From Bdellovibrionales bacterium (GTDB lineage: Bacteria > Bdellovibrionota > Bdellovibrionia > Bdellovibrionales > DASUEL01), in NCBI GenBank assembly GCA_050250255.1, contig JBFWOZ010000036.1, forward strand, positions 1 through 29,413: a stretch of DNA of 29,413 nt. Direction: 5' to 3'. Every line of letters starts with the position of its first letter. Position 1 is the stretch's first letter. The translations under genes and the position numbers were made by a program. The notes below the pieces were generated by a model. The model saw only the letters and a list, made by a program, of their open reading frames with translations, was not told the origin of the DNA and did not search any database. Positions 2,150 to 28,154 of the stretch are shown here, piece by piece.

Positions 2150-2238
2150 GCCTAGCGCTCCGCACCAGATCGATACATTAAACTACTTAGAAGCAATATA
2201 AGCTTCTCTTGTTTACCACAATGTGCAAAAAATTAACA

Positions 2239-3352: not shown

Positions 3353-4576
3353 TTACTTAACTCTGTTAAGAATCTCTGTAACCCTGCCTGAAACCAAAGA
3401 AATAGTTGCACAGAATTTGGCCCAATCACTCATCAGAATTTGTCTTTTCATTAATAAATCACCTCGACGATAAGCCGCTTCAGTTGCATCCTTAATTGAA
3501 TGAGCCAACGCCATCTCAATAACCTCTCTTGTGTGCCCCGTTTTTTCTGAAGCCCAGTCTCTAAATGTGCTTCTAAAGCCATGCGCAGTCACATTTACTT
3601 CCAATCTTTTTTTAAGTAGTGCGAGAAAGGCATTGCTGGAAAGTTGACTGTTGTGTCTACCCGGAAAGACAAATTCACTTTCGGAATATTCCTTAATCGA
3701 TCTAAGAATTTCGAGTGCTCTTTTTGATAGAGGCACTCGATGCTCTCGCCTCGCTTTCATTCGAGATGCGGGAATAACCCACAATGACTCTTCAAAATTC
3801 ACTTCTGACCATTTGGCACCCATGACTTCATTGGTCCTACACGCAGTTAATATCTGAAATTCTAGTCCCAATGGAACGACGCCCTCTAATTCACGGAGCC
3901 TTTTCATGAATGAACCCATTTCATTAATTGGAAGCGCTGTAAAATGTTGAACCTGCTGTACGCTACTCCGCTTTGGTAGAAGATTGTCCAAATGTCCGCG
4001 CCATCGAGCTGGATTTTCGCCTTTGCGATATTGATGAACTGTTGCCCACGATAAAACTAATTCTAAGCGCCCTCTCAGACGGCTCGCAGTTTCAGTTTTT
4101 ATGCGCCAAATGGGTTCAAGAATTTTCATTATTAGGCCCGTATCTACATCTTGAATCGAAAGATGACCAATGATGGGATTCGCATATGTTTCAATCGTAT
4201 TAGTCCACTGGTCTTCATGCTTGGCGTTTTTCCAGCCTGCCCGATGAGAGTCTATATAGGCCGATGCACATTGTGCGAAGGTCATAGCCTTGGCATCTAA
4301 TAGTGCTCTGGCTTGCTTTTCCGCTCGTCTTGCTTCGATTGGGTCAATGCCATCAAGGAGCATTTTGCGACACCCTATGGCTTTCATGCGAGCTTCTGCA
4401 AGTGAAACTAAATCTGTGGGGCCCAAACCCATAGAGCGGGATTTTTTATTGAGCATAAACCGAAAAACCCATGACTTTGTGCTGCTTGGCAAAACCTGAA
4501 GATAAAGCCCGTTACCATCTCCATAAAGCCCTGCCTCCTGAATCCTTTGAACGGATAATGAATTTAATTTGCCCAT
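3353..4576 (-). CDS. P4-like tyrosine integrase with N-terminal arm-binding domain
   Basis: N-terminal YGDGNGLYL...KSWVFRF. Catalytic residues intact: R (TACRTNE), K (RMKARREH), HxxR (HGFR), H (LAHS), Y (AAYRR). SD GGAGAGGA upstream. Confidence 0.97.
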   Translation of the reverse strand: MGKLNSLSVQRIQEAGLYGDGNGLYLQVLPSSTKSWVFRFMLNKKSRSMGLGPTDLVSLAEARMKAIGCRKMLLDGIDPIEARRAEKQARALLDAKAMTFAQCASAYIDSHRAGWKNAKHEDQWTNTIETYANPIIGHLSIQDVDTGLIMKILEPIWRIKTETASRLRGRLELVLSWATVHQYRKGENPARWRGHLDNLLPKRSSVQQVQHFTALPINEMGSFMKRLRELEGVVPLGLEFQILTACRTNEVMGAKWSEVNFEESLWVIPASRMKARREHRVPLSKRALEILRSIKEYSESEFVFPGRHNSQLSSNAFLALLKKRLEVNVTAHGFRSTFRDWASEKTGHTREVIEMALAHSIKDATEAAYRRGDLLMKRQILMSDWAKFCATISLVSGRVTEILNRVK

Positions 4577-7944: not shown

Positions 7945-8460
7945 ATGATGACTCGTACTCAACAAAACAGTGTCTTTTTTACTATTTGCTGCACGCTTTT
8001 AGCATCTTGCGGAGATGGTCCAAAAAAAACCTCTGATCAGATCATCTACCAAAAACAAACCTACACTCACGCTGCTGATCAATGTCCAAACGTCGAAGGA
8101 GAGTACGTCAGATATGACGGCTCTGATCTCGAATATTTTGAAATAACGAAAACCGAAAAAGGTCTTAAGGTCATTTTTAATTCAGGACCAGACAGTTATG
8201 AAACAGAAATTGATGGCACTTCAAGAATTTTTACGGAGCCAGCTTTTTACACAGGCTACTGTATGAAAAACGAAGTGTTTATCCAGTACTACGACATCAA
8301 CAATAAAATCTATGCTCAATCACTCTATTTTCTGAATGAACAAAAATCCCTCATCACGCGACAAGAGAACTTTGATGAAGTGGTTGCTGAAAATGGATTT
8401 GACGAAGGCTCAAAAACTTGGATTAAAAGAGAAGTCGCCCCTCCGCAAACACAGAACTAA
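7945..8460 (+). CDS. Putative lipoprotein
   Basis: Lipobox LLAS|C, SD AAGGA upstream, beta-rich body. The 3' end overlaps the convergent barrel gene by 38 bp. Confidence 0.75.
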   Translation: MMTRTQQNSVFFTICCTLLASCGDGPKKTSDQIIYQKQTYTHAADQCPNVEGEYVRYDGSDLEYFEITKTEKGLKVIFNSGPDSYETEIDGTSRIFTEPAFYTGYCMKNEVFIQYYDINNKIYAQSLYFLNEQKSLITRQENFDEVVAENGFDEGSKTWIKREVAPPQTQN

Positions 8461-9733
8461 AACGTTCATAAAGACCAAAAGCCGTATCTCTAGGACCAAA
8501 ATAACGGTCATGTCCAACATCAAACTGGAGATGAGCGTTAAATCTATGCATTAATTTTGCGCGGAGAAGTGTTTCGTTCGTTGAAGGATAAGTGAGTACA
8601 AAAATCTCAGGCGTCCACGTGCTATCTTGGTCACCATATGACAGTCGTAAAGTAGATCCTATTCTTGTTTTTTCCTGAGAGCCCTGCAGATAGTTGTTAG
8701 CCGTTGCTATGGATTCGTTCGCATCTTGTTCCGTCGTACTTCTTCCGAGGACTTCTTGTTTGGTCACATATATTGGAAAATAACGACCCAGTACCTGGAG
8801 TTGCAGGCGAAGCTTTTCGAAAAAGGGTCTTTCGTAGCCAAGAACAGCGTCGTAGTAGGAGTTTGTGGTAATGGCCTTATCAAGCTTTGTAGATCGGTGT
8901 ATGTAAGCCGCCTCAAATCTTAAAACAGATTCATCCAATGTTACGGAGTAGTTTAGTCCTAAGGCCTTTATCCTGTCGTAACGTGGCGTGAGTACTAATA
9001 CTCCATTTTGAAATCCATCGCTTTCCAAGAGAGGGAGTCGCGCCCAACCGTCAAAAAGGATAAAGGAAAAGTCTTGATCTGCCTTCAAATAGCTCATCTT
9101 TAAAGCCATCTCAGAATTTTTTGTCTGAGTTCTAATGGTTTCTTCATCATGAACGCTTGTCGTGGATGGAATAGAATCAGGAGGTAATAAAAACGTCGAT
9201 GGCACAAATCCAAAGTTATAAACCATCGTAATGTTCCAAGGAGAGGCACCCTCTTCAAATCCGTAAGAAAGCAATAAACCATCGGCACCCGTTCTTAAGT
9301 TTTCTTCATCTGTTGAGAAGCGTGCACGACGTTTACCCGTCAAAAAATCCGTAGGATTAAAACCATCAGAGACTCCCCATGGAGTGATCAAACGGCCTGC
9401 GCGAAACTCAAGACCAGTCTTATAATACTGATAGTAACCTTCACGTACCTCTACGGTCGTATGCTCATTGTTTCTATCTGCTGTACGTCGACGATTTAAA
9501 AACTCACCCTCGACACGAAAGCTGTTCGCTTCACTCAACTTCGGATTTGCGTGGATTAAAAGCCCATTTTCTTGCTGCAATGCACGTGTCTCTGATGTCC
9601 ACTTTTCCTGAGTGGGTCCATATATATTAGAAAACAGTCGCCCACCCACACCTAAAGAAGAACCTTCGTCATCCGCGAGCGCTCCAGCTGGTAATACTAA
9701 AAAAAATATTAGAAATAGTCTCTGGATTTTCAA
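8423..9733 (-). CDS. Outer-membrane beta-barrel protein (DUF1302-like / LolA-like-associated porin)
   Basis: Probable TTG start at 9733 just after the upstream stop (MKIQRLFLIFFLVLPAGALA signal peptide). Motif VREGYYQY...EFRAGRLITPWGVSDGFNPTDFL and C-terminal beta-signal VFAEGRLLF. Confidence 0.8.
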   Translation of the reverse strand: MKIQRLFLIFFLVLPAGALADDEGSSLGVGGRLFSNIYGPTQEKWTSETRALQQENGLLIHANPKLSEANSFRVEGEFLNRRRTADRNNEHTTVEVREGYYQYYKTGLEFRAGRLITPWGVSDGFNPTDFLTGKRRARFSTDEENLRTGADGLLLSYGFEEGASPWNITMVYNFGFVPSTFLLPPDSIPSTTSVHDEETIRTQTKNSEMALKMSYLKADQDFSFILFDGWARLPLLESDGFQNGVLVLTPRYDRIKALGLNYSVTLDESVLRFEAAYIHRSTKLDKAITTNSYYDAVLGYERPFFEKLRLQLQVLGRYFPIYVTKQEVLGRSTTEQDANESIATANNYLQGSQEKTRIGSTLRLSYGDQDSTWTPEIFVLTYPSTNETLLRAKLMHRFNAHLQFDVGHDRYFGPRDTAFGLYERFSSVFAEGRLLF

Positions 9734-9734
9734 T

Positions 9735-10526
9735 TTACTTCCTGGAAATATTTTGTGGAGCGAAGAGTGCATCTGAGATACCTTGGTTCACTTTCACATT
9801 AGAAAATTCTATTTTGGTTTTTTTAGAATTTAAAAAGTTCTCAACCTCTAACCGATGTGCCATCCATTTTGAATTTTGACTATCCACTTCTTTGTTTTCG
9901 TAAGCCATGAGCTTCTTTAACTTTTGTCCCTCGAGATTAAAATATTCAACTTGGGAAACCATAAAGTTATCAGATCGAATCTGTTGGATTTGTTTGGAGT
10001 AGCCGAAGCGCTCTTTCACTTCAACGGTTTTGGGTGTGGATTCTACAACATAGCAAACGCCACCATCATGGCAGGTAGATTCCGGCAGGAGCTTATAGTC
10101 AAAACTGTTAAGATCTGGTGTGGATATGTCTGAATAGCTAAATTGGGAGCCCATGAAGCTTTGACTCTGTGCTTGGTTTTCAACTCGTCTTGTTTTTTTA
10201 AAAGCTGGTAAATAAAGTAGCACTTCTGATTTGCCATTTTCTTTTTCTAAAAATAATACGGCCTCATCGCGAATTTCTGCTGGTGATTGAAACCTTGTCA
10301 GAGTGTTAAAGTTTACTTTATTGGGCGCAAGCTTTCTCCACCATGTGAATTTTTTTACGTTTTCGCTTCCACCTTTATCAATATTCGTAAGCTTTGTATC
10401 CGCTTTCACGTCAGACAATTGCCTCGCCTGTTCATTTTTGGCCATCACACCTTTAGCTTCGAGAATAGGCAAAGCCGCTTCAGCTATTTGAGATGAAAAT
10501 ATGAGAATACAAATCAATTTATTCAT
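9735..10526 (-). CDS. Outer-membrane lipoprotein-sorting (LolA-like) periplasmic protein
   Basis: Signal peptide, then RFQSPAEIRD..L, LYLPAFKKTRR, SFMGSQFSYSD, EYFNLEGQKLK, all hallmark LolA-like motifs. Alternative start at 10538. Confidence 0.9.
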   Translation of the reverse strand: MNKLICILIFSSQIAEAALPILEAKGVMAKNEQARQLSDVKADTKLTNIDKGGSENVKKFTWWRKLAPNKVNFNTLTRFQSPAEIRDEAVLFLEKENGKSEVLLYLPAFKKTRRVENQAQSQSFMGSQFSYSDISTPDLNSFDYKLLPESTCHDGGVCYVVESTPKTVEVKERFGYSKQIQQIRSDNFMVSQVEYFNLEGQKLKKLMAYENKEVDSQNSKWMAHRLEVENFLNSKKTKIEFSNVKVNQGISDALFAPQNISRK

Positions 10527-12966
10527 AAGAAAGCCCATCCCTTACAGAAAGTTGAGTCGCCTGAAATGCAGGTACGAGTGTCGATATCACCGAAATTAAA
10601 ATTCCAATGGCGAATGTAATGGGTATGATTTCAATGGGAAAGTAGAAATCAATATTCCATCCTAAAATTTCAGACATAAGATAATTAACCCATAAGAAAC
10701 TACACAAAAACCCGGTCACAATTGCAAAAAAGACACCCAGAAAACCCTGGATTGCCGCTTCGTAAATGAAAACAGAAAATGTCTGCATCTTCGTTTGGCC
10801 TATAGCTCGCATCAATCCAATCTCTCGTGTCCTTTCCAAGATCGAAATAAACATCATGTTCATCATCGATAAGGCAGCACAAATGAGAGCGGCCAGTTCA
10901 ATGGCCTTTGTGTATTTAAAACTATTATTTATACCTTCTTTAAAGCCTTTTTTGACTTCAGAGTTCAAAACAACTTGTAGGTGAAATGCCTCACCTAGCT
11001 TTTGATCAATCAGTTGTCTTGTGGCAATCGCCTGACTGGAATCTTTCAGCTTAAGATAAAAGGCACTGACAAGATGGTCGTTCCAATATTTTTTGTAGAG
11101 ATCTCTAGGGAGATATAAAACACCTTCATTAGAAGCGAAATCCTTTACGCTTGCGAGAATGGATAGCTCAAGTGGTCCACCTGGAGTTTCGAGGGTGATG
11201 GATTCCCCTATTTTCTTTTGAAACCGAGATAAGAAGTTATTCGAGACTACCACTTGTCGCTCTGTCGATTGAAAGAGTCGCTCACCAATTCTGACAGCTT
11301 CCGACTCTGGTAAATCGAACATTTTATATTTTGACTCCACACCCGGATCATCAAAAGCTTTGATGGCCACCGTGCGATCAGAGTATTTAAAGTGCAAAAA
11401 TCGCATTGCAGTAGGTGCCGATGCTAGATTCTCTTTCACTTCGGGAATAGCAGCGAGATCCAGCTTTAATTCTTCATGAATCGGTCGAGCTTGGACCGAG
11501 AAGAGCGCTCCTGCCGAGGAAACAACAATATCGGCGCGTAATATTTTATCTAACCAGTTAAAGATAGAATTTTGAAAGCTCACGTTGATAATCGCAATGG
11601 TAATGACCAAACTTAAACTCAACTGCAAAGCAAAAATATTAGCTATGCTGCGACCAAAATTTCTTTGAATATTATCTATAGCGAGCCTGCCAACAATCGA
11701 ACGCCGCAGAAAAGAAAAACACGAAAGAATGGATCGCATGAGAGCACTCATATGCTGAGCCATCTTTGAAGAGCGCATGTTGACCTGGTTTTTAACGGCT
11801 TCAATAGGTTGAAGGCGACTTGCAGAGTAGGAGGGCCATAGCGCGGCCGCCGAGGAGACAATTGTTCCAACAAAAACCGCTAAAAGAAAGTCAGACGGCC
11901 GATATGTAATAACCGCGACAGGAACATTCATGAGCGACTGTGCCGACAATGCCTCGGTCACTTGTCCTACGAGCGATTTCGCCAAAATGAAGCCCAAAAA
12001 CGAACCTAGAGTTGAACCCACCAGTCCGATCAAGAATGATTCCGAAAGAAAAATGAATAGAATATTTTTTTCCGTCGCTCCGATGCTTCTCAAAATCCCA
12101 ATTTCTTTTCGCCTCTCAACGGTTGCGATATGTGTCGTGTTTGCGACTAATAAAAGTCCAATAATAAAAGCGAGAGACCCAAACAAGAGCAAAATGGTTT
12201 GATATACCGAAATCAATCTATCCGTATTTATGGATTGTGGCGCCTGTACTTGATAAGCCGGGCCCAATACCCCGATAAGTTTTTGCTGGATTTCTTCAAG
12301 CGAGTTTTTTTCTCTTAAAACGATATCAGCCCGATCAATATTGTCTTCGCGGGCAAACAACATGCGAGCCCCGTCTATGTCCATAATCGCGATAGATCCA
12401 TTGTAGGCTTTTGCCGCGCCCTCTGGTTCAATCAGACCACGAACCACAAGCTCCTTTACTCCTCTCGCCGTTTGGATTTTAACACGTGAGTCGAGCGAGA
12501 GTCCTAAACGCTGAGCGAGAATCGTGGAGAAAATAATACTGTTCGGCTGGTTTAAAAAAACCAGAGGGTCTTCCATAATCTCTTGATTTGAAACTTTATA
12601 GGTACGAACCGCAGACTCTCTTAGAAGATCTACTCCTAAGATCACAAGTGATTCGGATTTATTTCCAATAAGAAGCCGCGTATTTTCCTCAACTAGCGGA
12701 ACAATGTTTTTAATACCGCTTATCTCTTCGATAATACGTATTTTCTCTTCACTAAATCCCGTTTTACCCGCGCTGATCATCAGGTCTGCCTGTCCTGAAA
12801 TATTCATTACGTTTTCTTTGAAGGCCGAAAGAGTCGCTTTATTAATTAACAAGATCGAAGAGAATAGCCCCACCCCTATCGTGATACCCGCTATGAGCAA
12901 GAAGGAACGCAGAGGCTTGCTCAATATCTGTCTTAAATTAATGTAACGAATTAAGTTCAGCAACAT
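10519..12966 (-). CDS. ABC transporter permease, duplicated MacB/FtsX (LolC/E-like)
   Basis: 815 aa with two periplasmic domains and two FtsX motifs (ERRKEIGILRSIGAT; ERTREIGLMRAIGQT). Confidence 0.95.
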   Translation of the reverse strand: MLLNLIRYINLRQILSKPLRSFLLIAGITIGVGLFSSILLINKATLSAFKENVMNISGQADLMISAGKTGFSEEKIRIIEEISGIKNIVPLVEENTRLLIGNKSESLVILGVDLLRESAVRTYKVSNQEIMEDPLVFLNQPNSIIFSTILAQRLGLSLDSRVKIQTARGVKELVVRGLIEPEGAAKAYNGSIAIMDIDGARMLFAREDNIDRADIVLREKNSLEEIQQKLIGVLGPAYQVQAPQSINTDRLISVYQTILLLFGSLAFIIGLLLVANTTHIATVERRKEIGILRSIGATEKNILFIFLSESFLIGLVGSTLGSFLGFILAKSLVGQVTEALSAQSLMNVPVAVITYRPSDFLLAVFVGTIVSSAAALWPSYSASRLQPIEAVKNQVNMRSSKMAQHMSALMRSILSCFSFLRRSIVGRLAIDNIQRNFGRSIANIFALQLSLSLVITIAIINVSFQNSIFNWLDKILRADIVVSSAGALFSVQARPIHEELKLDLAAIPEVKENLASAPTAMRFLHFKYSDRTVAIKAFDDPGVESKYKMFDLPESEAVRIGERLFQSTERQVVVSNNFLSRFQKKIGESITLETPGGPLELSILASVKDFASNEGVLYLPRDLYKKYWNDHLVSAFYLKLKDSSQAIATRQLIDQKLGEAFHLQVVLNSEVKKGFKEGINNSFKYTKAIELAALICAALSMMNMMFISILERTREIGLMRAIGQTKMQTFSVFIYEAAIQGFLGVFFAIVTGFLCSFLWVNYLMSEILGWNIDFYFPIEIIPITFAIGILISVISTLVPAFQATQLSVRDGLSYE

Positions 12967-12973
12967 GCACCCA

Positions 12974-13657
12974 TCAATTTACTTTTTCGTCTGTTTCAAC
13001 AACACCATCTCTCAAATGTACAATTCGAGAACCAAAATTGGCGGCGTTTCTATCGTGAGTGACCATCAAAATGGCTTGATTCTGAGATTGAGATATTTCC
13101 TTTAATAAATTGAGAACTATGACCCCAGACTTCGAGTCCAAATTACCCGTTGGTTCATCAGCGAGAATCAGAAGTGGTTTGGTAATAAGAGCCCTTGCGA
13201 TCGCAACGCGCTGGAGCTCTCCCCCCGACATTTCGTGCGGCTTGTGGTAGGCACGTTTTTTAAGATCCATCATTTCTAAAAGTTTAAGCGCACGCCCTTC
13301 TACCTGGCTCAACGAGCGTCCGTCTAAAAGCAGCGGGAGACATATGTTTTCAACCGCATTCATGAGCGGCAAAAGATTAAAAAACTGGAATACAAAGCCC
13401 AGTTGACGTCGACGAAAAAGAGATAATTCTAAATCAGAAAGTTTGTGAATTTGTACATTATTAAATGTGACTTCTCCCGATGTTGGACGATCTAAACCGC
13501 CACAAATTTGCAAGAGAGAGCTTTTTCCAGAACCACTTGGTCCCATGATCGAGACGAATTCACCAGCACGGATATTTAAAGAAATGCCTTTAAGAGCAAT
13601 CACACCCTGCTCTTTTCCGTGGTTGTAGGATTTATGCAAACTCTGAATGTTTAGCAT
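12974..13657 (-). CDS. ABC transporter ATP-binding protein (LolD/MacB-type)
   Basis: Walker [18 protein letters not shown], signature MSGGELQR, Walker [20 protein letters not shown] 13657 follows SD AGGAG (track start GTG 13666). Confidence 0.96.
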
Positions 13658-13839
13658 TTTTTTCACTCCTAAACGAAGACTTCAAAATACGAATCGAGAT
13701 CATCGCTATATCAGAAATCGAGTAACGCTACTAACTAGTAGTCGTCGCTGTATTAATTTCACAAGCATTGACTTTAAATCTCAGTCCGTAGCATCTGTTG
13801 TCATTGCATAAACGCTAATTTCAACAAGGTGGGTTGTTC

Positions 13840-15033
13840 GTGAAACGTGTTGTGATCACAGGGCTAGGGATTACTTGCGGTATTGGAAACGATATCCACA
13901 CTTTCTCTGAAAACTTAGCGTGCATGAAATCTGGCATTCTGCCATTTAGTATTTTTGATTCCGGTAAATACACAGTTAAAATTGGCTCGACCGTTCACGG
14001 TTTAGAAAAAAAGCTTTCTCCTCGAATTTTAAATTTACCTCGTCCACTACAATTTTTATGGAACGCCACCCAGGATGCTCTGACTCAAAGTGGAATCATG
14101 GATTCCATCAACCCACAGAGAATCGGAACTTATGTTGCAGGTCCTGCGTGTTCTCTCTTAGAGGTTGAAAATTATTATCGTACTTACGTGAATCAAGGTT
14201 TAGCCGCAACACAACGACATGACTTAACTTATGCCAACTGGGATTCCGCGGTGAATGAAATCAGCCGTCAGTTTTCTATCATGGGTCCTCGTAATACAAT
14301 TTTAACCGCATGTTCTTCTTCTGGAGTTGCAATTGGTCTTGCTACAGATCTTATTCGCCTTGGTGAGGTAGATGCCATGATTGCCGCCGGCACTGACGGC
14401 TTTAGTGAATTCACATTTTCTGGTTTTCAATCTCTCAATAGCATCAGTCCCGTGCCTTGCCGACCATTTGACCAAGACCGCGCCGGTCTGTCTTTTGGGG
14501 AAGGCGCTGGAGTTCTTGTTTTAGAAGATTACGATCGTGCCGTAAAAAGAGGTGCGGTGATTTTAGCGGAGATTGCAGGTTACGGAGCCGTTGGAGAAGG
14601 TTACAACTTGACAGCTCCACATCCCGAGGCGATTGGCTTCATCAAAACCATGAATCGCGCAATGAAAATGGCTCAAGTGTGTCCCGATGAAATCAGCTAT
14701 ATCAACGCCCATGGCACAGCCACCCCTATTAACGATGCGGTAGAGGGCTATGCAATTCGAAAACTTTTTGGAGATCGAGATTTGCCCGTGAACTCTATTA
14801 AAAGTCTAGTGGGACATTGTATGGGAGCAGCTGGAGCCGTTGAAGCCGTCAACACGGTACTCACACTTATGCACAACATGATTCCTGGCACTCTCAACTG
14901 CACCACCCCAGATCAAAACATTCCGATCACCGTTGTGCAAAATACGATTGAAAGACAACTCAACTATGCTTTATGCAATAGCGCAGGCTTTGGTGGAAAT
15001 AACTCGAGCGTTTTGTTTAAGAGGTTTGCATGA
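13840..15033 (+). CDS. fabF: Beta-ketoacyl-ACP synthase (FabF-like KS of a type II PKS/FAS), catalytically intact
   Basis: RVVITGLG start. Cys-His-His triad: TACSS, INAHGTAT, KSLVGH. Also PFDQDRAGLSFGEGAG and GFGGNN. GTG 13840 follows SD AAGGTGG. Confidence 0.93.
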   Translation: MKRVVITGLGITCGIGNDIHTFSENLACMKSGILPFSIFDSGKYTVKIGSTVHGLEKKLSPRILNLPRPLQFLWNATQDALTQSGIMDSINPQRIGTYVAGPACSLLEVENYYRTYVNQGLAATQRHDLTYANWDSAVNEISRQFSIMGPRNTILTACSSSGVAIGLATDLIRLGEVDAMIAAGTDGFSEFTFSGFQSLNSISPVPCRPFDQDRAGLSFGEGAGVLVLEDYDRAVKRGAVILAEIAGYGAVGEGYNLTAPHPEAIGFIKTMNRAMKMAQVCPDEISYINAHGTATPINDAVEGYAIRKLFGDRDLPVNSIKSLVGHCMGAAGAVEAVNTVLTLMHNMIPGTLNCTTPDQNIPITVVQNTIERQLNYALCNSAGFGGNNSSVLFKRFA

Positions 15034-16121
15034 AAATAGGAATCGATGGCCTTGGATTTGTCAGTCCTTGGGGTGAAACATTTGAAAGTTTCTACACGAA
15101 CTATCACGCAAGACAGAGCGCCATCCGCCCCATCGACAGATTTGATACAACTCAGATCACGGCTAAATCTGCCGCTCTCGTGAGTGAGTTTGATGCAAAA
15201 AAATATATCGATCCTAAAAAAGTAAGAAAGTACGACACCTTTTCTCGCTTCGGAATTTCCACGGCAAAATTAGCTTTACAATCTTCTCAGGTTCAATTGA
15301 GCGCCGAACAGCGTGAAAACATGGGAATTGTACTGAGCTGTGAATCTCAAAATATGGTGACCGCTGAGTACTTAGATGTCCTCTATCGAGAAGGCGCAGA
15401 TCACGTTAGTCCAAAATTATTTTCCATTGCCTCTGCGAACTCCGCTAATTGCAGTATCGCTATGGAAATCGATGTTCATGGTCCAAGCGTGAATGTGTCC
15501 TCTCATTTTGCCTCTGGCTTTCTCTCCGTTTACACTGGATCTCAATTAATTCGCGCTGGCCAAACAGATCACTGCTTAGTGGGATCTATTGATTATCTTT
15601 CGCAGCCGGTTATGGAATGTTACACCCGAATGAACGCTTATAAGACGCAAGATTCTGAAAGAGGCTTCGTACCCGGAGAAGGTTCGGCAAGTCTTGTTCT
15701 TTCCAATCAAGAAGGGCAGTACGGTACAATACTGGGTCTCTCTTATATATGCTCTTCGCAAAAAAATTATTTATGGCCAACAGATTCCAAACTTCATGCT
15801 GAAGTCTTAAAGAAAGCCATTGGAGAACATAAAATTGATAAATTCCAGTCGACTTCAAATGGCGACAAGATCGTAAACCAATTAGATTCTGAAGCTTACG
15901 AACTCATTTTTAAAGACGAGGCTCAAAAGCCAGAAAAAGTTTTTATTAAAAGCTATCTTGGCGAATTTTCGTCCATCCCAATTTTTCAAGTGATCAGTGC
16001 TTGCTGCGAACCTCAAGGCACAAAAACACTTATTTCTGTCACAAGTGTTGGTGGAGTTCACGGAGCTCTCTTGGTGATTTCAAGCGGTTACAAAGGACTA
16101 CAGAATGCCGTTGGCTTCTGA
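15030..16121 (+). CDS. Inactive ketosynthase homologue (chain-length factor)
   Basis: KS fold (IRPIDRFD, VSPKLF...ANSA, GFVPGEGSA) but the catalytic Cys position reads SHFASG and both His are absent (STSNG; KSYLGE). ATGA-coupled to the KS. Confidence 0.85.
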   Translation: MKIGIDGLGFVSPWGETFESFYTNYHARQSAIRPIDRFDTTQITAKSAALVSEFDAKKYIDPKKVRKYDTFSRFGISTAKLALQSSQVQLSAEQRENMGIVLSCESQNMVTAEYLDVLYREGADHVSPKLFSIASANSANCSIAMEIDVHGPSVNVSSHFASGFLSVYTGSQLIRAGQTDHCLVGSIDYLSQPVMECYTRMNAYKTQDSERGFVPGEGSASLVLSNQEGQYGTILGLSYICSSQKNYLWPTDSKLHAEVLKKAIGEHKIDKFQSTSNGDKIVNQLDSEAYELIFKDEAQKPEKVFIKSYLGEFSSIPIFQVISACCEPQGTKTLISVTSVGGVHGALLVISSGYKGLQNAVGF

Positions 16122-16584
16122 GGATCTTTTTCAGAGCATTTCCTTTAAAGGTGGTACAAAAAAGTACTTTGTCGCCGATATTGGACGGCCTCGCTTTAAT
16201 GAAATCGATCACTACGGTGTCGTTTGGAATGGCCACTTCATTACTTATTTCGAAACCGCACGACACCAGCTTTGCCGATTTTGTGACTTCGACATGCAAA
16301 GGCTTTCCGACGCTGGTGTCTACTTACCCGTATCAAATATTGAAATAAAAATTAAAAAGCCCATTCTCCCTCGCGACGAAATTAAAGTCGCCGTGCGCGC
16401 TTCGCTCATCGAAGAGAACCGTTTTGAGTTTTTTCACTTACTCCTCGTCAATAACGAGGTTCGTGCAAGTGGGAGTGTTCAACACATTCCTATGGATAAG
16501 TCTACCGGTACCGTTGCCTATCAGTTGCCTGAGAATGTTGTAAAAATCATGAAACCTCTTTCCGAGTTATTCGCCAATGATTGA
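16105..16584 (+). CDS. Hotdog-fold acyl-CoA/acyl-ACP thioesterase (4HBT/YbgC family)
   Basis: PRFNEIDHYGVVWNGHFITYFETAR motif with the catalytic Asp. Confidence 0.9.
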   Translation: MPLASEDLFQSISFKGGTKKYFVADIGRPRFNEIDHYGVVWNGHFITYFETARHQLCRFCDFDMQRLSDAGVYLPVSNIEIKIKKPILPRDEIKVAVRASLIEENRFEFFHLLLVNNEVRASGSVQHIPMDKSTGTVAYQLPENVVKIMKPLSELFAND

Positions 16585-17299
16585 CGAAAAAAGACAAAAC
16601 CATTTCACGCCTATGCGTCAGACACTATACGACCAATTCAATCTTTGTCGTTATATGGTCCCGGCAACAGTTTCTGGCGAAATGGACGTGGCGAAGTTTG
16701 AAGCCATGAAAAGACATGGCAGCAGAACCGCCCACTATATTCAAGCGGTTTCCAAATGTTTAAAAAAACACCCTCGAGTGAATGCGGGATTTGTTCGCAA
16801 TTTTTGGACAAACTCATCACGAATCGTTCATTGGAATACGGTAGATGCAGCCGTGAGCGTAGACAAGAAGTTCGGTGATGATCGCTACCCTTTCGTTCAC
16901 GTCATTCGTAACTCAGACAAATTAACAGTTAAAGAAATCGATGATGAAATTCGTTACGTCACTGAGACAGCGGTAGAAAATATCCCCGCTTTTGCTAACT
17001 ACCTTCGTTTCATGAAGTTGCCTCATCTCGTTCGACGAATGATGATGCACAAAATGATCTGTGACTCTGATTTGATGAAAAGTCGTATTGGCACTTTTAG
17101 TTTTACGAACATTTCATTCTGGGGTTTTAAAACGGCTTCTCTTAACACTCCGAGGTTGCTTGTGGGAGTTGGAGCTCCTTCAGATGAAGGAAAACTTCCC
17201 ATCGGTTATTCTTTTAATCATGTCATCTGTGATGGAGCACAAATTGGAGAGTTTCACCGAGATGTGGTTCGGTTTTTTAGAAAATGTGAGTTCGAATAA
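16577..17299 (+). CDS. Stand-alone 2-oxoacid dehydrogenase E2-type (CAT-like) acyltransferase catalytic domain
   Basis: LKKHPRVNA, VIRNSDK, GTFSFTN and HxxxDG (FNHVICDGAQ). 240 aa with no lipoyl or subunit-binding domain. Confidence 0.85.
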   Translation: MIDEKRQNHFTPMRQTLYDQFNLCRYMVPATVSGEMDVAKFEAMKRHGSRTAHYIQAVSKCLKKHPRVNAGFVRNFWTNSSRIVHWNTVDAAVSVDKKFGDDRYPFVHVIRNSDKLTVKEIDDEIRYVTETAVENIPAFANYLRFMKLPHLVRRMMMHKMICDSDLMKSRIGTFSFTNISFWGFKTASLNTPRLLVGVGAPSDEGKLPIGYSFNHVICDGAQIGEFHRDVVRFFRKCEFE

Positions 17300-17551
17300 T
17301 TAACGAGGATAGTTGTTAATAAACGAAGTGAGTTCTGCAATGGAGGTAAAAGCTTTTGGGTTAATATCTTGATTTTTAATCTTGATTTTAAACTGCTTGT
17401 AAATTTGTGAAACGATTTCAAGCACATCAACGCTATCTAGCTCTAAACCCGCACCGACAATTTGCATATCATCTGGGATTTCTTCCACTGAGTATTCAAG
17501 GTCAAAAGCGTCGATCAAAAGTTGTTTTATTTGTGTCGTAGTAATGCTCAT
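17300..17551 (-). CDS. Acyl carrier protein
   Basis: 83 aa, acidic, GLELDSVDVLEI phosphopantetheine attachment motif (LDSxD type typical of type II PKS / aryl-polyene-like ACPs). Confidence 0.95.
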   Translation of the reverse strand: MSITTTQIKQLLIDAFDLEYSVEEIPDDMQIVGAGLELDSVDVLEIVSQIYKQFKIKIKNQDINPKAFTSIAELTSFINNYPR

Positions 17552-17586
17552 TTTTAAAGACTAAAAATATAAGTGATTTTGGTCAA
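17552..17586 (-). promoter_or_regulatory. Sigma70-type promoter predicting a leaderless ACP mRNA
   Basis: Minus strand reads TTGACC (17586-17581), 17 nt, TAGTCT (17563-17558), 6 nt, ATG (17551). No SD present. Confidence 0.6.
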
Positions 17587-17595
17587 GGATGTTTT

Positions 17596-18123
17596 GTGAT
17601 ACCAGCGCTTCTGCCAGCTAAAGAGTTAAGTACGATCCTCGAAGAGGCTCGACTACAGTCATGGATCTCTGGCCATGCAACTCAACGCACTGGCTCGCTT
17701 GAAGAGCTACGCACACAACTTGATCGACAGAAAACACAAACCAGTTCTCGTACACACAAAAAAGTGGAATCCACTTACTGGGGCATTCAGGTCGACGCTT
17801 CAAAAGACCAATGTATTGGTGTCGATTTGGAATACCTCTCTCAAACCTTTATCAAACGTGACTTACAGACGATGCAAGAGCTCCTTGAACTTCCTGAAGA
17901 GTCCAGTCATCAAGACATCCTCGTTGAATGGACAAGTCGTGAAGCGGCTTACAAAGCCCTTAGACAGAGTTCAGACGCGCCACTTGCGGAACTTGCACAG
18001 CTCAAAAGAGTTGATAAGGAGCCCACCTCTTTTGTTCTTGGACCACAAAATGTGTCCTGCCACGTGAAAACGGCCATTGAAAATAATTGGATTCTCTCGA
18101 TCGCAAAACTGGAGACATTATGA
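17596..18123 (+). CDS. Divergent 4'-phosphopantetheinyl transferase
   Basis: IGVDLE and EWTSREAAYKAL match the PPTase G(V/I)D(x)E and WxxKEAxxK motifs. SD AAGGA, GTG start. Confidence 0.8.
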   Translation: MIPALLPAKELSTILEEARLQSWISGHATQRTGSLEELRTQLDRQKTQTSSRTHKKVESTYWGIQVDASKDQCIGVDLEYLSQTFIKRDLQTMQELLELPEESSHQDILVEWTSREAAYKALRQSSDAPLAELAQLKRVDKEPTSFVLGPQNVSCHVKTAIENNWILSIAKLETL

Positions 18124-18857
18124 CCTTTTGGCAAAATCAAGTTGTTCTGGTAACAGGAGCTAGTCGAGGTATTGGTCGTGAATTAGCGATTCGTTTTTCT
18201 GCTTTAGGTGCAAAAGTCGCAATCAATTACGTGTCCAACCAGGCCCGCGCTGAAGAAGTGTTAGCACTTTGTAATGCAGAGAATACTCGTCTCTACCAAG
18301 CAGATGTGGGAAATGAAGACGATGTCACCAAAATGGTGGAGCAGATTGAAACAGATCTTGGTGAAGTCACCATTCTTGTTAATAATGCCGGGCAAACTCG
18401 CGATGGACTCCTCATGATGATGAGTGCAGAAAATTGGAAATCTGTTTTATCCACTCATCTTGATGGAGCTTTTTACTGTAGTCGCGCGGTGATGCGCGGA
18501 ATGGTTTCAAATAAGTTTGGCCGCGTGATCAACATCACTTCGGTCTCTGGAATTAAAGGTACAGCCGGGCAATGTAACTACTCTGCCGCAAAAGCAGGAC
18601 TCATTGGATTTACTAGAGCTCTTTCGAGAGAAATGGGACGAAAAAAAATCACCTGTAATGCCGTAGCTCTTGGTGTAATTGATACTGAGATGACTCAGGA
18701 TTTGAGTGCTGATGTTTTACAAGCCTACAAAGACTCGACTTCTCTTAAACGCTTTGGCCAAACGAGTGAGGTTGCAGATCTTGTTGAGTTTTTAGCAAGC
18801 GATAAATCGAACTACCTCACCGGACAAGTGATCACTCTCGATGGAGGGCTCGTATGA
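18120..18857 (+). CDS. fabG: 3-oxoacyl-ACP reductase
   Basis: VTGASRGIG, NNAGQTRD, catalytic Ser (TSVSG), YSAAK, GQVITLDGG. ATG 18120 overlaps the PPTase TGA. Confidence 0.95.
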   Translation: MTFWQNQVVLVTGASRGIGRELAIRFSALGAKVAINYVSNQARAEEVLALCNAENTRLYQADVGNEDDVTKMVEQIETDLGEVTILVNNAGQTRDGLLMMMSAENWKSVLSTHLDGAFYCSRAVMRGMVSNKFGRVINITSVSGIKGTAGQCNYSAAKAGLIGFTRALSREMGRKKITCNAVALGVIDTEMTQDLSADVLQAYKDSTSLKRFGQTSEVADLVEFLASDKSNYLTGQVITLDGGLV

Positions 18858-19321
18858 GTAACGCCGAAGACGCAACACTCATCCTTGCGGCCGTCCCTCA
18901 GAGATATCCCTTCTTAATGGTGGACCGAATTGTTTCTCACGAGTTTGGTAAAAAAGCTGTTTGTCGAAAGAACGTTACAAATGGTGAAGAAATTCTCGCC
19001 GGTCACTTCCCTGGAAATCCCATTTTTCCAGGTGTACTTATGGTGGAGCTTTCGCTTCAAACAACTCAAGTGATGTTGACAGATCTTCAATCTCTTAAGA
19101 ACAAAATAAAAGACACCCAGGCTCCTCAAGGTTATTTAGTTTCCATCGATAAATTTAAATTCCTAAAAGTGATTCGACCAGGAGACATTCTCGAAGCGAC
19201 ATCCGAATTTGATATGGACGCCATGGGAATGACACGTGCTAAAGTAAAAATCACTACCGATGCAGGAGAAGATGTGGCTCACGGTATTGTTACCGTCTCT
19301 AGCCCCACCACACCTGCATGA
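18854..19321 (+). CDS. fabZ: 3-hydroxyacyl-ACP dehydratase (FabZ family), copy 1
   Basis: PQRYPFLMVD and GHFPGNPIFPGVLMVE, with catalytic His and Glu. Confidence 0.92.
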   Translation: MSNAEDATLILAAVPQRYPFLMVDRIVSHEFGKKAVCRKNVTNGEEILAGHFPGNPIFPGVLMVELSLQTTQVMLTDLQSLKNKIKDTQAPQGYLVSIDKFKFLKVIRPGDILEATSEFDMDAMGMTRAKVKITTDAGEDVAHGIVTVSSPTTPA

Positions 19322-19710
19322 TTCCACAAATAGCTCACAGATACCCTTTGCTTCTTGTCGACCGCGTTCTTGAAAGCCGAACTGGCGAATATGTGAAGGC
19401 CACTAAAAATGTGAGCTTTAACGAAAAAGTTTTTTTAGGTCACTTTCCGAATCATCCGATCTATCCTGCGATTTATATTATTGAAGGGCTCTGTCAGTGC
19501 GCTCAAGTGATGCTCGGAGCCGAAAAAGCCGTCACCGCAAAACTTGAAAGTTTTAAGTTCACACGCCCCGTCTACCCAGGCGATCAAATCACTTATGAAG
19601 TGGAACTGGAATCTATGATGGGCGCATTTCAAATTGCAAAAGCTGTGGCCTCCGTGAACGGAAAAGCCGTTTCTAAAGGCACCATCGTTGGCTGCAAACT
19701 TTCGGAATAG
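19318..19710 (+). CDS. fabZ: 3-hydroxyacyl-ACP dehydratase (FabZ family), copy 2
   Basis: HRYPLLLVD and GHFPNHPIYPAIYIIE, with catalytic His and Glu. ATGA overlap with copy 1. Confidence 0.92.
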   Translation: MIPQIAHRYPLLLVDRVLESRTGEYVKATKNVSFNEKVFLGHFPNHPIYPAIYIIEGLCQCAQVMLGAEKAVTAKLESFKFTRPVYPGDQITYEVELESMMGAFQIAKAVASVNGKAVSKGTIVGCKLSE

Positions 19711-24423: not shown

Positions 24424-26619
24424 TTACTTTGGACGCGGATTTCTTGAAATGCTCTCTGCATCGTTCACACCAGCGGCGTGTGGAAATCCTGAGCGAAAAA
24501 ATCCTTCTCGAATACCTTTTGTTTCGCTCGGTCGTGTGTACAAACGCCCGTTGACGTTTTGTAAGATTTGTTTTCCCCCGTTCGCCGTTGTAGCGGTTAC
24601 AGATTGATCAAGCATGCTTGGCCCACGGCGAGAGTAATCCTGTTTGGCAGGAGTCGCCGTTCCGTTCTGTGCATGATCGTTGATTTGCAACGTATAGTGA
24701 TGATGTCCTTTGTTTTGTGAAGCAGCTGATTTAAGGTATGCTTTTGGACCACCCTTAGAACCATTCACACCTACATCACCATGATCTCCTGTATCTGTTT
24801 TCATAAAATCAGGACCAATCACATAGTTTTGACCGTAATCTAAAAAGACTATTCTTTTTCTTTGAGCTGGCGAAAGCTTTTCCATAACAGCAAACTCAAA
24901 TGGGTTCGCCCACCCTGTTCCATCTGGCTTTATCCCCAACGGATCTTTCCAAAATGGGTCTTTGCTCATGTTCATTGCATTCAAAAGTTTTACAGAATAT
25001 CCAAGATTCGCAGGGTCTTTCATGTAAGCACCAGATTTTAAATATCTGATAACCCATTCAACGTGATTCGCAGGTTTAATAATATGTACAGACCCTGGAA
25101 ATTGCTCCATCTGTGCTTGCCCATTCGAAACGGTCATTTCAACTTCTTTTTCTAACGTCAAACTCCCACGTTTTGCTAAAGAAAGTGTTTCTTCCTTAAT
25201 ATGCGGATTAATAGAATTTCCATCAATCCAATCTTCATGCAGAAGTTCACGAACATTAAAACCCTTCAGATCACGTGCAACCATCATTTGGAATTTTCTA
25301 TCACCAGCCACGACATGATCTTCAATGTTAAGACCTAAAATCTCTGCTGTTTCTACTCGCCCATTTGCATAAAAAATCTGATTTAAATCAGCTACACTTT
25401 GGTTTTCAGGCGTGTATCTAATTTGACGAATGTTGTAGTCACCTACTCCTCGAACATTTGGAATATCTGGTCGAAACCCAGGATTTGGCTCCAACAACAT
25501 CGCACTATTAAAGTGTCGACCAACAGCTTGGCCTTCTGCCGTGGTTTGAGCGAATCGATCAGCCGAATAATTTCCTTCAGAAATCGATCCTGGAGTCCCT
25601 AAAAATCGACGAGTTGTCTCTGTGCGAAATGTCGGAACTGGTTGATAGATGTACGTACTGCTAGCAAAAATAATACTCGAGTCTAAAGTATGTACTTTGT
25701 GTTCAAAGGTCGCAATCGCATTTGCCTTTGTTGGTATAACACCCGTCTCTGCAAGCAAAATGTCATGGGTTATTTGTAAACCTTGACCTGCTAAAATAAA
25801 GATAGGTACGCCGGATTCTTTTCTCATTTGTTCAATAAATGGATCCATTCGGAAGGTGCGCCCTTGGACAGCCATGAGAATGATCGCCGCATTTTTTTCT
25901 TTTGCAAGTGTGATCATAGAAAGTAGTTGTTCTTTGATCACAGGTACGCCAGCAATAAAGCTTGAAACAAGAAGAGGTCTTACTTTTGCCACTTCTTTTA
26001 CAGCAGCTTGCACGTGATCCGCACCGTAGAGGTCCGTATCGATGATTTTCACGAATTGAGTTTCTTTATCTTTCTTAGATTTTTCTTTAAGCGCCTGAAG
26101 ATCTTTAAACAAGCCGTTTTCCCCAAGCAGTTCGTTCAGTTGTTTTTCTTTAATTCCTAAAGAATCGGCAATCTCTTTTGAAGTAGGAATTCGGCGATAT
26201 TTCGCTGCCAAAGCTGTGTATTTGTTAACAAGAAATGTTTGGAGTCGGAAAAATCCGTCTGGAGAACTATCCTTTATTTCTCTTAATGCTGTAGCTCGAT
26301 CAAAACCAAATTTTTCAAGTAGGTCTGCATCTTTTTCTTTTAAGCGAGACACCACATCTGCAAGATCTGGCAAATATTTGTATTTAACGATGAAGTTGAC
26401 GACGATGCCGTTCACGGCTTTTTGTACACTCATCGGAAGTTCATTTACCTCTGGTCGACTCCCCTTCATGTCGAAAGGTGCGTCTACGCCAGTGGCAACA
26501 GCTTCTTTTCCGGCCTTTTTCTTTTTTATGGAGAGAACATCGCAGCTTTTCTTAGTGGCTGCAAAAGCGGAGTTTGTAAGTAGCAAGAGAGACAATGAGA
26601 GAACTAGAGTGCTTTTCAT
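24424..26619 (-). CDS. Secreted calcineurin-like metallophosphoesterase resembling phage T5 A1-type proteins
   Basis: Signal peptide (…TNSAFA), HTH-like RIPTSKEIADSLGI, and ordered C-terminal metal motifs IEDH, HEDWIDG..IN.H, ANH, DHGDVGVNGSKG, GHHH, followed by DY..GPS and NGGKQIL. SD GGAGG. Family assignment is from memory of motif order. Confidence 0.7.
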   Translation of the reverse strand: MKSTLVLSLSLLLLTNSAFAATKKSCDVLSIKKKKAGKEAVATGVDAPFDMKGSRPEVNELPMSVQKAVNGIVVNFIVKYKYLPDLADVVSRLKEKDADLLEKFGFDRATALREIKDSSPDGFFRLQTFLVNKYTALAAKYRRIPTSKEIADSLGIKEKQLNELLGENGLFKDLQALKEKSKKDKETQFVKIIDTDLYGADHVQAAVKEVAKVRPLLVSSFIAGVPVIKEQLLSMITLAKEKNAAIILMAVQGRTFRMDPFIEQMRKESGVPIFILAGQGLQITHDILLAETGVIPTKANAIATFEHKVHTLDSSIIFASSTYIYQPVPTFRTETTRRFLGTPGSISEGNYSADRFAQTTAEGQAVGRHFNSAMLLEPNPGFRPDIPNVRGVGDYNIRQIRYTPENQSVADLNQIFYANGRVETAEILGLNIEDHVVAGDRKFQMMVARDLKGFNVRELLHEDWIDGNSINPHIKEETLSLAKRGSLTLEKEVEMTVSNGQAQMEQFPGSVHIIKPANHVEWVIRYLKSGAYMKDPANLGYSVKLLNAMNMSKDPFWKDPLGIKPDGTGWANPFEFAVMEKLSPAQRKRIVFLDYGQNYVIGPDFMKTDTGDHGDVGVNGSKGGPKAYLKSAASQNKGHHHYTLQINDHAQNGTATPAKQDYSRRGPSMLDQSVTATTANGGKQILQNVNGRLYTRPSETKGIREGFFRSGFPHAAGVNDAESISRNPRPK

Positions 26620-27851
26620 TGGCCACCTCCCGACAACGACTTGCGACAGCTAAGGCCTGTTGGTCTTTCACTTACAGTTTCAACTTTTACTTCTTTTTTC
26701 AATTTAGGCTTGAAAGCTTTTTCCATTTTCGCAAACACTTTCTTTGCAGCCTCAATCACTTTCACATCTCCCGCAAGAGTTTCACCAACACGTTCTTCTT
26801 CCGTTGCTGGTCGCACAAGGCCACTATTCATATAGATGCTAAAACGTGGACGACCTGTTCTTGCGACTTCTGCGTTGCTTAGGGCATTATAGATACCAAA
26901 TTTAACATAACGACCATAAGTATCCGTTGCGTATTTTTTGAAAAGGCTATGAACTCTTTCAATCGTATTGGGATTATCATCTGCGAAAATGATAAAGTAC
27001 GACTTCTTCATGACATCGCCGTTAGGACTGAGCCTCATCGGAGCATTTTCAGGATCCATCTTAATGATAATTCGGATGAACTCTTCTTGCCATCCAGGTT
27101 TTGACTCTGTTGCGGAGCGAGGGTTATTAGAAAAATGCTCAGTCTCCGGACCACTGGTGCTGACATAAGCTCCTGGTCGATGACGGATTGGCAGTTCATC
27201 ATTTGCTGTATGCTTTGCGAAAGCATCAAACAACTGATCCCACTGAGTCTCTGGATAGTAGCGAGCGGATTCTATCGTTAAAGCAGAAGCTGCTTCAGGA
27301 GTACTTAAAGCCGCTGCAAAAAGAGGATACATCGTTCCTTGCCACTTTCCAGATTTTGCTGCTTCGAACTGTTCTAATAAATAGTTTCTTTGACCGGTGG
27401 GATCAGCACGATAAAAACGAAACCAGTCAGGGGCGAGCATATATTCAGAAGGTCTAATGGTTCTTCGTTTGCCCGTCTGCATATCCATGACTGTATATTT
27501 TTGGCCAACGGCGATTCCAGGATCCATTTCTCCGCGAGCTAAACGATCATGATAAACAAATAATTCGTAATAATCTTTTTGTGAAACGATGAGTTCTTCT
27601 GGGCCGGTTGCTACTGGTTGATAAATCTGACCTCTAAAAAAAACTCTTCTAAGAACAACGGGGCCATTCCAAGATCCGCGAGTCATTGAAGACCGACCTT
27701 CTTGCCCTGCGACCATTGTGCTATCAAAATCACCGATGATAAAAACACCATTGTTATTCGCTATGGGTTGGGCATTTAATTCCTGAGATATAAAAACGAG
27801 GAATATAAGGACTACAAAGATCCACTGATATTTAACGCCCGCTTTTAACAT
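26616..27851 (-). CDS. Secreted HAD-superfamily phosphatase-like protein
   Basis: Signal peptide (…IFLVFISQELNA|QP). HAD motif I FIIGDFDST, motif II-like TIESAR, Lys in ESKP, motif IV IIFADD. ATG 27851 follows GAGG (track start 27872). TGA overlaps the ATG of the next gene. Confidence 0.7.
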   Translation of the reverse strand: MLKAGVKYQWIFVVLIFLVFISQELNAQPIANNNGVFIIGDFDSTMVAGQEGRSSMTRGSWNGPVVLRRVFFRGQIYQPVATGPEELIVSQKDYYELFVYHDRLARGEMDPGIAVGQKYTVMDMQTGKRRTIRPSEYMLAPDWFRFYRADPTGQRNYLLEQFEAAKSGKWQGTMYPLFAAALSTPEAASALTIESARYYPETQWDQLFDAFAKHTANDELPIRHRPGAYVSTSGPETEHFSNNPRSATESKPGWQEEFIRIIIKMDPENAPMRLSPNGDVMKKSYFIIFADDNPNTIERVHSLFKKYATDTYGRYVKFGIYNALSNAEVARTGRPRFSIYMNSGLVRPATEEERVGETLAGDVKVIEAAKKVFAKMEKAFKPKLKKEVKVETVSERPTGLSCRKSLSGGGQ

Positions 27852-28154
27852 TCCAACCTCACCTGCTCCCATATAGATGGGAAGCTATTATTTCGTTCTC
27901 AGGTTCACTGCCCAAAAAGTAGTCAGGAAGCACTTTAGGGCATCGGCGAGTCTATAAAAACTCCCTCAATGCCTATTATTTGGCCTACAAACTACCGCTC
28001 AACAGCGAATAACTAGGGTTCGAGAGTGTTATTGCAAAATGAGAGCCTCATTTTTAATGATTTTTAGCTCGCATTAGTTCTTGTTTTGAATTCCATAAAA
28101 CTTCGTTGTATGGTCGCAAACCCTTGAATTATTAGGGATTTGTTAGGAGACGTT

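Follow-up and report, generated by a model that had tools for sequence, protein, structure and literature searches.

A two-gene operon in an uncultured Bdellovibrionales genome

We analysed contig JBFWOZ010000036.1 of assembly GCA_050250255.1, a 29,413-nucleotide stretch of DNA (hereafter the window) from an uncultured member of the order Bdellovibrionales, and focused on an operon of two genes, one for a phosphatase of the HAD superfamily and one for a metallophosphoesterase homologous to protein A1 of phage T5. Both genes lie on the minus strand, within open reading frames (ORFs) at 26616-27872 and 24424-26619. The upstream gene 1 (26616..27851), for a predicted exported HAD phosphatase of Pnkp/Dmp type, most likely starts at 27851, where GAGG stands 5 nt before the ATG, and encodes 411 aa, or 418 aa if an in-frame ATG at 27872 is used instead. 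Gene 2 (24424..26619) encodes the 731-aa A1-like protein, predicted to be exported and to be a DNase. A sequence-only reading that preceded this work had described an ATGA-coupled gene pair in a probable predatory bacterium. The coupling agrees with what we found: the ORFs overlap by ATGA at 26619-26616, with GGAGGT 5 nt ahead of the A1-like ATG (coupling junction at 26616..26630, minus strand). The host may be a predator, as it belongs to a phylum, Bdellovibrionota, for which predation is reported to be typical (PMC8067016). A promoter and terminator scan gave chance-level signals only, and a Pfam search placed neither operon protein in a family above cut-off. In single-protein searches, the host genome held one copy of each gene.

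The A1-like metallophosphoesterase

The sequence-only reading had seen calcineurin/Mre11-like motifs in the gene 2 product and likened it to T5 A1, and profile comparisons upheld that likeness. The 731-aa protein matched PHROG 1745, the T5 A1 family, annotated as 'DNA transfer protein' and a hallmark of Demerecviridae, with E=9.4e-35 over residues 142-693 and profile positions 13-539 of 542. It also matched 386 phage records, with identities of about 21-25%, and a profile of seven sequences aligned with T5-like A1 in hhalign at a probability of 99.8% over 437 columns, covering A1 residues 91-553. In the ESM Atlas, its neighbours were phage A1-type clusters. The calcineurin-type motifs are E433-D434-H435, D463, N518-H519, H613 and H639-x-H641, the same metal-site motifs as in T5 A1; among 46 aligned A1-like proteins, D434, H435, D463, N518, H519, H613 and H641 were invariant (46/46) and H639 was kept in 41. 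T5 A1 is phage-encoded, host-cytoplasmic and signal-less, whereas gene 2 is a chromosomal gene among housekeeping genes, and its product has an export-type N-terminus, a cysteine behind the predicted signal peptide and a longer helical N-terminal part.

Conservation and fold comparison of the structural model (predicted local distance difference test, pLDDT, 86.5) indicate a calcineurin-like catalytic domain with a putative binuclear metal site at about residues 424-694 (24538..25350, minus strand). The best named nuclease fold for residues 364-694 was the PolD DP1 exonuclease (Z-score 10.7, root-mean-square deviation (rmsd) 4.2, 211 residues aligned); the model also matched SbcD (Z 9.4, rmsd 3.9, 183 aligned) and Mre11 (Z 8.9, rmsd 4.1, 184 aligned). 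All three share the D-x-H, D, N-H, H, H-x-H site with the A1-like protein. In contrast to them, it is predicted to be exported, contains an extra middle domain and a helix-turn-helix (HTH)-like region, and has no adjoining Rad50/SbcC or polymerase partner; sequence searches of the PDB found nothing significant for its family. The helical HTH-like region, predicted to bind DNA, spans about residues 60-190 (26050..26442, minus strand). The Sigma70_r3 family was matched here by 11 of the 46 A1-like proteins (best E=5.9e-10), and residues 118-188 of the model resembled the HTH of TetR-family proteins with Z 6.6-7.2. Mainly because this DNA-binding-type region stands behind a signal peptide, we think that DNA is the substrate; sequence and model point to gene 2 as a likely DNase gene.

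The HAD phosphatase

The HAD motifs noted by the sequence-only reading turned out to be nearly invariant in an alignment of 99 relatives, composed of 62 of the 91 relative clusters from a profile-free search and 37 locus-derived proteins. Numbered in the 411-aa protein, motif I is D41-F-D43-S-T (27717..27731), with D41 as nucleophile and D43 as acid/base by analogy; its first D was found in 98/99 and the second in 96/99. Motif II, S195-A-R197 (27261..27269), had T or S in all 99 and R in 91; motif III, K251 (27099..27101), was invariant (99/99); and motif IV, D291-D292 (26976..26981), had E or D in 99/99 followed by D or N in 98/99, all on the minus strand. These four motifs on a Rossmann-like core make gene 1 a member of the HAD superfamily, and it represents a new family without a Pfam entry.

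HAD structures filled the fold list of the gene 1 model (pLDDT 88.6), headed by Pnkp1 (Z 7.8, rmsd 3.4, 134 aligned) and the phosphatase of T4 Pnkp (Z 7.8, rmsd 3.3, 133 aligned). Metallophosphoesterase nuclease folds and HAD folds were thus both returned for the respective partners that the sequence-only reading had assigned to them. Pnkp-type folds took ranks 1-3 with Z 7.3-7.8, other HADs lying within 1 Z. The catalytic set given for the T4 Pnkp phosphatase, Asp165, Asp167, Ser211, Lys258 and Asp278 (PMC3592404), matches the HAD motifs. In contrast to T4 Pnkp and Pnkp1, the gene 1 product has no kinase domain, carries about 250 extra inserted residues and a signal peptide, and shares 9-12% identity with them and no sequence-level match; no P-loop kinase or end-repair ligase was found in the protein itself or among its neighbours in the window. 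T4 Pnkp also has an Arg two residues past Ser211, as motif II has after its Ser. As the closest solved folds are polynucleotide 3'-phosphatases, end-healing appears nearly as plausible as nucleotidase activity.

The sequence-only reading had also tied the HAD to T5 Dmp, and this tie did not hold beyond shared motifs. T5-like Dmp, a HAD of DxDxT/TAR/K/DD type, carries the same motif type and falls in PHROG 415, 'polynucleotide kinase', which only 1 of 99 HAD members matched (E=0.011). In hhalign, the HAD family and Dmp scored 6.8% and 10.4%, over motif I only, which is not significant homology, and a tblastn search of phages with the HAD protein found no match. When the HAD profile was run against 1,275 ORFs of phage loci, Dmp-like proteins, near-copies of one another, took 35 of the top 40 ranks, none significantly (best E=0.083). 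The gene order is also similar and different at once: in a T5-like phage Dmp lies three genes downstream of A1, so A1 is HAD-accompanied there as well, whereas here the HAD gene immediately precedes the A1-like gene and is coupled to it. A motif scan found no adjacent HAD for most A1 genes of non-T5 phages. Foldseek against viral structures gave a single match, an uncharacterised phage protein (E=3.3e-4), and in the ESM Atlas the closest HAD clusters, at scores of 0.92-0.93, carried no name; two of the first three were viral, which we take as a lead only. Sequence searches of the PDB returned nothing significant for the HAD family either. We infer from the models that the HAD works like Dmp or Pnkp; orthology was demonstrable to neither.

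The family profile revealed two further, distant HAD paralogues in the host genome. Both have an FDxDDN motif I and no linked A1 gene (contig C31, 15091-15753; contig C81, 793-1284), and the one on C31 resembles proteins of two uncultured phages of 630-640 kb.

Conservation of the gene pair in Bdellovibrionota

The sequence-only reading had treated the two genes as one module, and a neighbourhood survey across the phylum agreed. Within a set of 61 related genomes, 7 contained an A1-like gene and 5 a HAD; wherever DNA ahead of the A1-like gene was present, in five relatives, a HAD-type gene immediately preceded it, and in G051 the contig end cut the locus. We extended the survey to 401 genomes of the phylum, of which the A1 profile matched 56; dropping 8 weak matches to the helical region alone left 48. 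The HAD profile matched 97/401 genomes, many through the more distant paralogue family, and the pairing count used the 44 listed HAD matches in A1-positive genomes. A HAD gene preceded the A1-like gene, at most 2 kb away and in the same orientation, in 41/48 A1-positive genomes from many families, and all 40 genomes whose HAD match started by profile position 70 were A1-positive; since related genomes are not independent, these figures are counts and not a test. Among 43 measured pairs, 14 overlapped by 4 nt and 40 had a gap of at most 25 nt. The flanking genes vary between lineages and, judged by eye, are mostly housekeeping genes. Protein searches by word index recovered nothing beyond the window's own protein, a limit of their sensitivity since the genome surveys did find relatives.

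The seven unpaired A1 genes comprised four signal-less copies in a phage context and three export-type copies. The former (G362, G250, G389 and G273) lack a signal-like start and have neighbours that look phage-like by eye (L084-L087). The latter (G115, G069 and G141; L081-L083) are preceded, by eye, by a conserved exported protein of ~180 aa and a Mur-ligase-like gene. In one further genome (G232), the pair is directly followed by a gene that resembles calcineurin-type 5'-nucleotidases, with an HTNDHHG motif seen again by eye and a product predicted to be exported (L096:5905-7470).

Predicted export and a cysteine tag

Signal peptides were judged by a heuristic, an uncharged hydrophobic stretch within the first 60 residues, and by this measure both proteins have signal-peptide-like starts where the sequence-only reading had assigned Sec signal peptides. 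For the HAD, the predicted Sec signal peptide covers about residues 1-27 (27771..27851, minus strand); for the A1-like protein, it covers residues 1-20, ending in AFA, and is followed by C26 (26542..26619, minus strand). The stretch was present in 41/41 cellular export-type A1 copies and 37/37 locus-derived HADs, and in 0/26 phage-type A1 copies (0/21 phage, 0/4 prophage-like and 0/1 plasmid). The four prophage-like copies were so labelled partly for lacking the stretch, so that the 21 phage copies constitute the independent control. A twin-arginine pattern occurred in only 1/41 A1-like proteins and 2/99 HADs, and a lipobox in 1/41 A1-like proteins. Both operon proteins are predicted, on sequence grounds, to be Sec-exported.

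Furthermore, each partner bears a terminal cysteine. All 41 export-type A1 copies have a Cys at most 32 residues past the hydrophobic stretch, and 97/99 HADs have one within their last 30 residues; in the window's HAD it is C402 of a C-terminal Cxxx[LF] tag (26646..26648, minus strand; C in 98/99). Like single Cxxx[LF] tags, post-signal or C-terminal, are found on many predicted exported proteins of the same genome (for example L172, L177, L184, L188 and L189). We chose 20 tagged proteins by eye; Pfam gave no name to 14 of them, and those that it did name were an amylase, S41, M48 and M28 peptidases, an amidoligase and, weakly, a CHAD protein. A crude count of Cxxx[LFVI] showed no enrichment among proteins with a signal (57 and 49 of 735, against 142 and 114 of 1,756), so that the tag class rests on family conservation together with examples chosen by eye. 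We considered that the last Cys of the HAD may form a pair-specific disulfide with the first Cys of the nuclease, an idea that is not needed given the same tag on many unrelated exported proteins. Because other exported proteins carry it, the tag seems to belong to a cohort of exported enzymes and not to this pair alone.

Phylogeny and origin

A quick, unrooted maximum-likelihood tree was built from 67 catalytic-plus-middle regions, 41 exported and 26 from phage, prophage-like and plasmid copies. Of the latter, 25 fell on one side of a deep branch with a Shimodaira-Hasegawa-like approximate likelihood ratio (SH-aLRT) support of 96. The free search joined the window copy to the remaining prophage-like long branch; constraining all 41 exported copies together raised the likelihood by 27.75 (p-value of the approximately unbiased test, p-AU, 0.8). 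By this tree, the exported family is old and diverse and stands apart from T5-like A1. The sequence-only reading had suggested domestication from phage; this and a shared ancestor may each explain the unrooted tree equally well. The best-scoring phage record for the A1-like protein of a relative came from an Ochrobactrum jumbo phage (E=1e-57), and a signal-less copy is located on a plasmid of Bdellovibrio sp. HM001 (L165). Viral contigs yielded no match to either a housekeeping protein or a prophage-like A1.

Surroundings of the operon

The sequence-only reading had placed the pair among housekeeping genes with no prophage nearby. The first part stands: the adjoining genes encode an acyl-CoA dehydrogenase, a YceI protein and a dicarboxylate symporter, and the G+C content of the locus (0.40-0.44) is host-like (genome 0.437). 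The second part needs qualification, as a tyrosine integrase is encoded at 3353-4576, 20 kb from the operon. The integrase has an arm-binding domain and adjoins two unannotated ORFs (1454-2149 and 2209-3333), neither of which matched PADLOC; no tRNA was found in the window. Farther along, positions 13834-19710 and 8423-13666 hold a cluster of two ketosynthase-like genes, a thioesterase, an acyltransferase-like gene, an acyl carrier protein on the opposite strand, a phosphopantetheinyl transferase, FabG and two FabA-like genes, together with ABC/FtsX/LolA-like export genes from which this cluster diverges. It resembles a specialised lipid or aryl-polyene-type pathway.

Proposed function and alternatives

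We consider it rather probable, from sequence and structural models, that this conserved operon of Bdellovibrionota encodes an exported DNA-digesting pair acting outside the producer's own cytoplasm. Both proteins would leave by the Sec route, each with the single terminal cysteine tag common to the organism's exported hydrolases. Double-stranded DNA would be gripped by the HTH-like region and hydrolysed at the binuclear metal centre, as in PolD DP1, SbcD and Mre11. The cutting might resemble what expression of T5 A1 does to the Escherichia coli chromosome: T5 A1 was reported to be necessary and sufficient for breaking down the host chromosome in vivo and to be structurally similar to repair and proofreading nucleases (bioRxiv 10.64898/2026.04.02.716235). 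For the HAD, we slightly prefer a Dmp-like role in converting deoxynucleoside 5'-monophosphates to nucleosides and phosphate; alternatively, it may remove blocking 3'-phosphates like T4 Pnkp and so let the nuclease continue. The DNA would be that of prey cells, which is the weakest step, extracellular or biofilm DNA being the alternative. As for the sequence-only proposal of breakdown to importable nucleosides, the host genome contains a gene for a nucleoside transporter of CNT type; a search with PF03502 found no Tsx channel. B. bacteriovorus 109J is reported to use the nucleoside monophosphates of its prey directly (PMC7529429), which tells against the proposal, as dephosphorylation would be wasteful for a similar predator.

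Several further observations weigh against a prey-directed DNase pair. The in vitro activity of T5 A1 is described as untested, and A1 may activate a host nuclease (bioRxiv 10.64898/2026.04.02.716235). The window copy of the A1-like protein lies on a long tree branch, and its motif I, E-D-H, is one residue shorter than the usual G-D-x-H, so that the first metal ligand may be E433. Non-nucleases share its fold, namely inactive polymerase B subunits (Z 9-10.2) and Vps29, YfcE and LpxH (Z 8.4-8.9), Vps29 being the top Foldseek match. For the HAD model, the best Z of 7.8 exceeds those of Nir2 (7.2) and trehalose-phosphate phosphatase (6.9) by less than 1, a range that the tool rates as middling, and Foldseek against the PDB gave no match at E<=0.001. 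Three export-type A1 copies, all from one family, have no HAD match in their genomes. Moreover, the pair is patchy (41/401 genomes), and the best-sampled family of the order (f11; 56 genomes, many closed), which we infer to hold cultured Bdellovibrio, has only 2 A1 matches, both signal-less. With the operon missing there, it is not core predation machinery.

Other functions would account for parts of the same evidence. The pair might stay in the producer's own periplasm or at its surface as an envelope barrier that breaks down the DNA of phages or other foreign sources as it passes through. The patchy spread, predicted export with a DNA-binding-type region, and closest outside relatives in phages and prophage-like copies are all compatible with such a barrier, which we nonetheless find unlikely: PADLOC matched none of six family members and neither of two other window proteins, the neighbours mostly look by eye like housekeeping genes instead of defence clusters, and the cysteine tag also occurs on an amylase and on peptidases, enzymes that seem nutritional. 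A published anti-phage system, PUA-Cal-HAD, likewise pairs a calcineurin-fold enzyme with a HAD phosphatase, in a cascade from dATP to dADP to dAMP (bioRxiv 10.64898/2026.01.15.699771), and Dmp alone is reported to be toxic through nucleotide imbalance (bioRxiv 10.64898/2026.04.02.716235). By this precedent, our two enzymes might act in series on free (deoxy)nucleoside tri- and diphosphates, from or inside prey. PUA-Cal-HAD is, however, intracellular, triggered by its PUA sensor and directed at free dNTPs, whereas the proteins here have export-type N-termini. No PUA family was among the Pfam matches of the 46 A1-like proteins, and the absence of PADLOC matches refers to a 2023 library that may lack the system. 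Free nucleotides as substrates also fit poorly with a calcineurin-fold protein that is related to A1 over its full length, carries an HTH-like region and is closest in fold to nucleases, and we regard this function as improbable.

The HAD and calcineurin superfamilies are both broad in substrate. That breadth, together with LpxH, a glycerophosphodiesterase, AphA and lipin-type HADs in the fold lists at slightly lower Z, would suit a general exported phosphodiesterase and phosphomonoesterase that scavenge phosphate from phospholipid head groups, wall polymers or sugar phosphates. Such scavenging would leave unexplained why the whole A1 architecture with its HTH-like region is kept, and the best named folds of both partners act on nucleic acids; we hold it to be similarly improbable. 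A prophage remnant or chance adjacency is largely refuted and has hardly any probability left in our estimate. A1 homologues are indeed mostly phage genes, the phylum contains the four signal-less copies among phage-looking genes, and an integrase lies 20 kb away; against this stand intact and invariant motifs, host-like G+C content, the same gene order in 41 genomes from many families (41 of 48 paired) and export-type N-termini in 41/41 cellular copies, absent from all 26 phage-type copies.

A bolder form of the DNA-digestion proposal is that dozens of uncultured Bdellovibrionota kill and strip prey by demolishing its chromosome in the manner of T5. An A1-type DNase that bears the cysteine tag would be delivered into the prey along with the Dmp-type phosphatase coupled to it, phages and cellular predators would have a host-takeover function in common, and the tag would mark a prey-directed cohort. 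We put this forward tentatively, as a version that we doubt.

Significance

The superfamilies of both proteins are known; as far as we searched, their export, their coupling and their spread through a predator phylum have not been described. The literature searched, which excluded most subscription journals and supplements, contained no description of an exported A1 relative or of this operon. B. bacteriovorus releases the signal-peptide nucleases Bd0934, Bd3507, Bd1244 and Bd1934 during predation (PMC7925074); sections 4 and 10 of that source present them neither as A1-like nor as phosphatase-coupled, and they are set apart from gene 2 by this description only. The same source states that the enzymes with which B. 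bacteriovorus digests prey DNA are not precisely known (PMC7925074), and the operon puts forward a candidate for the enzyme with which bacterial predators digest chromosomes. With it come more than 40 relatives of T5 A1 that, being naturally exported, are probably easier to clone and purify and would make a long-standing phage question directly assayable. Finally, the operon adds a HAD family without a Pfam entry and may link the chemistry of phage host takeover to cellular predators.

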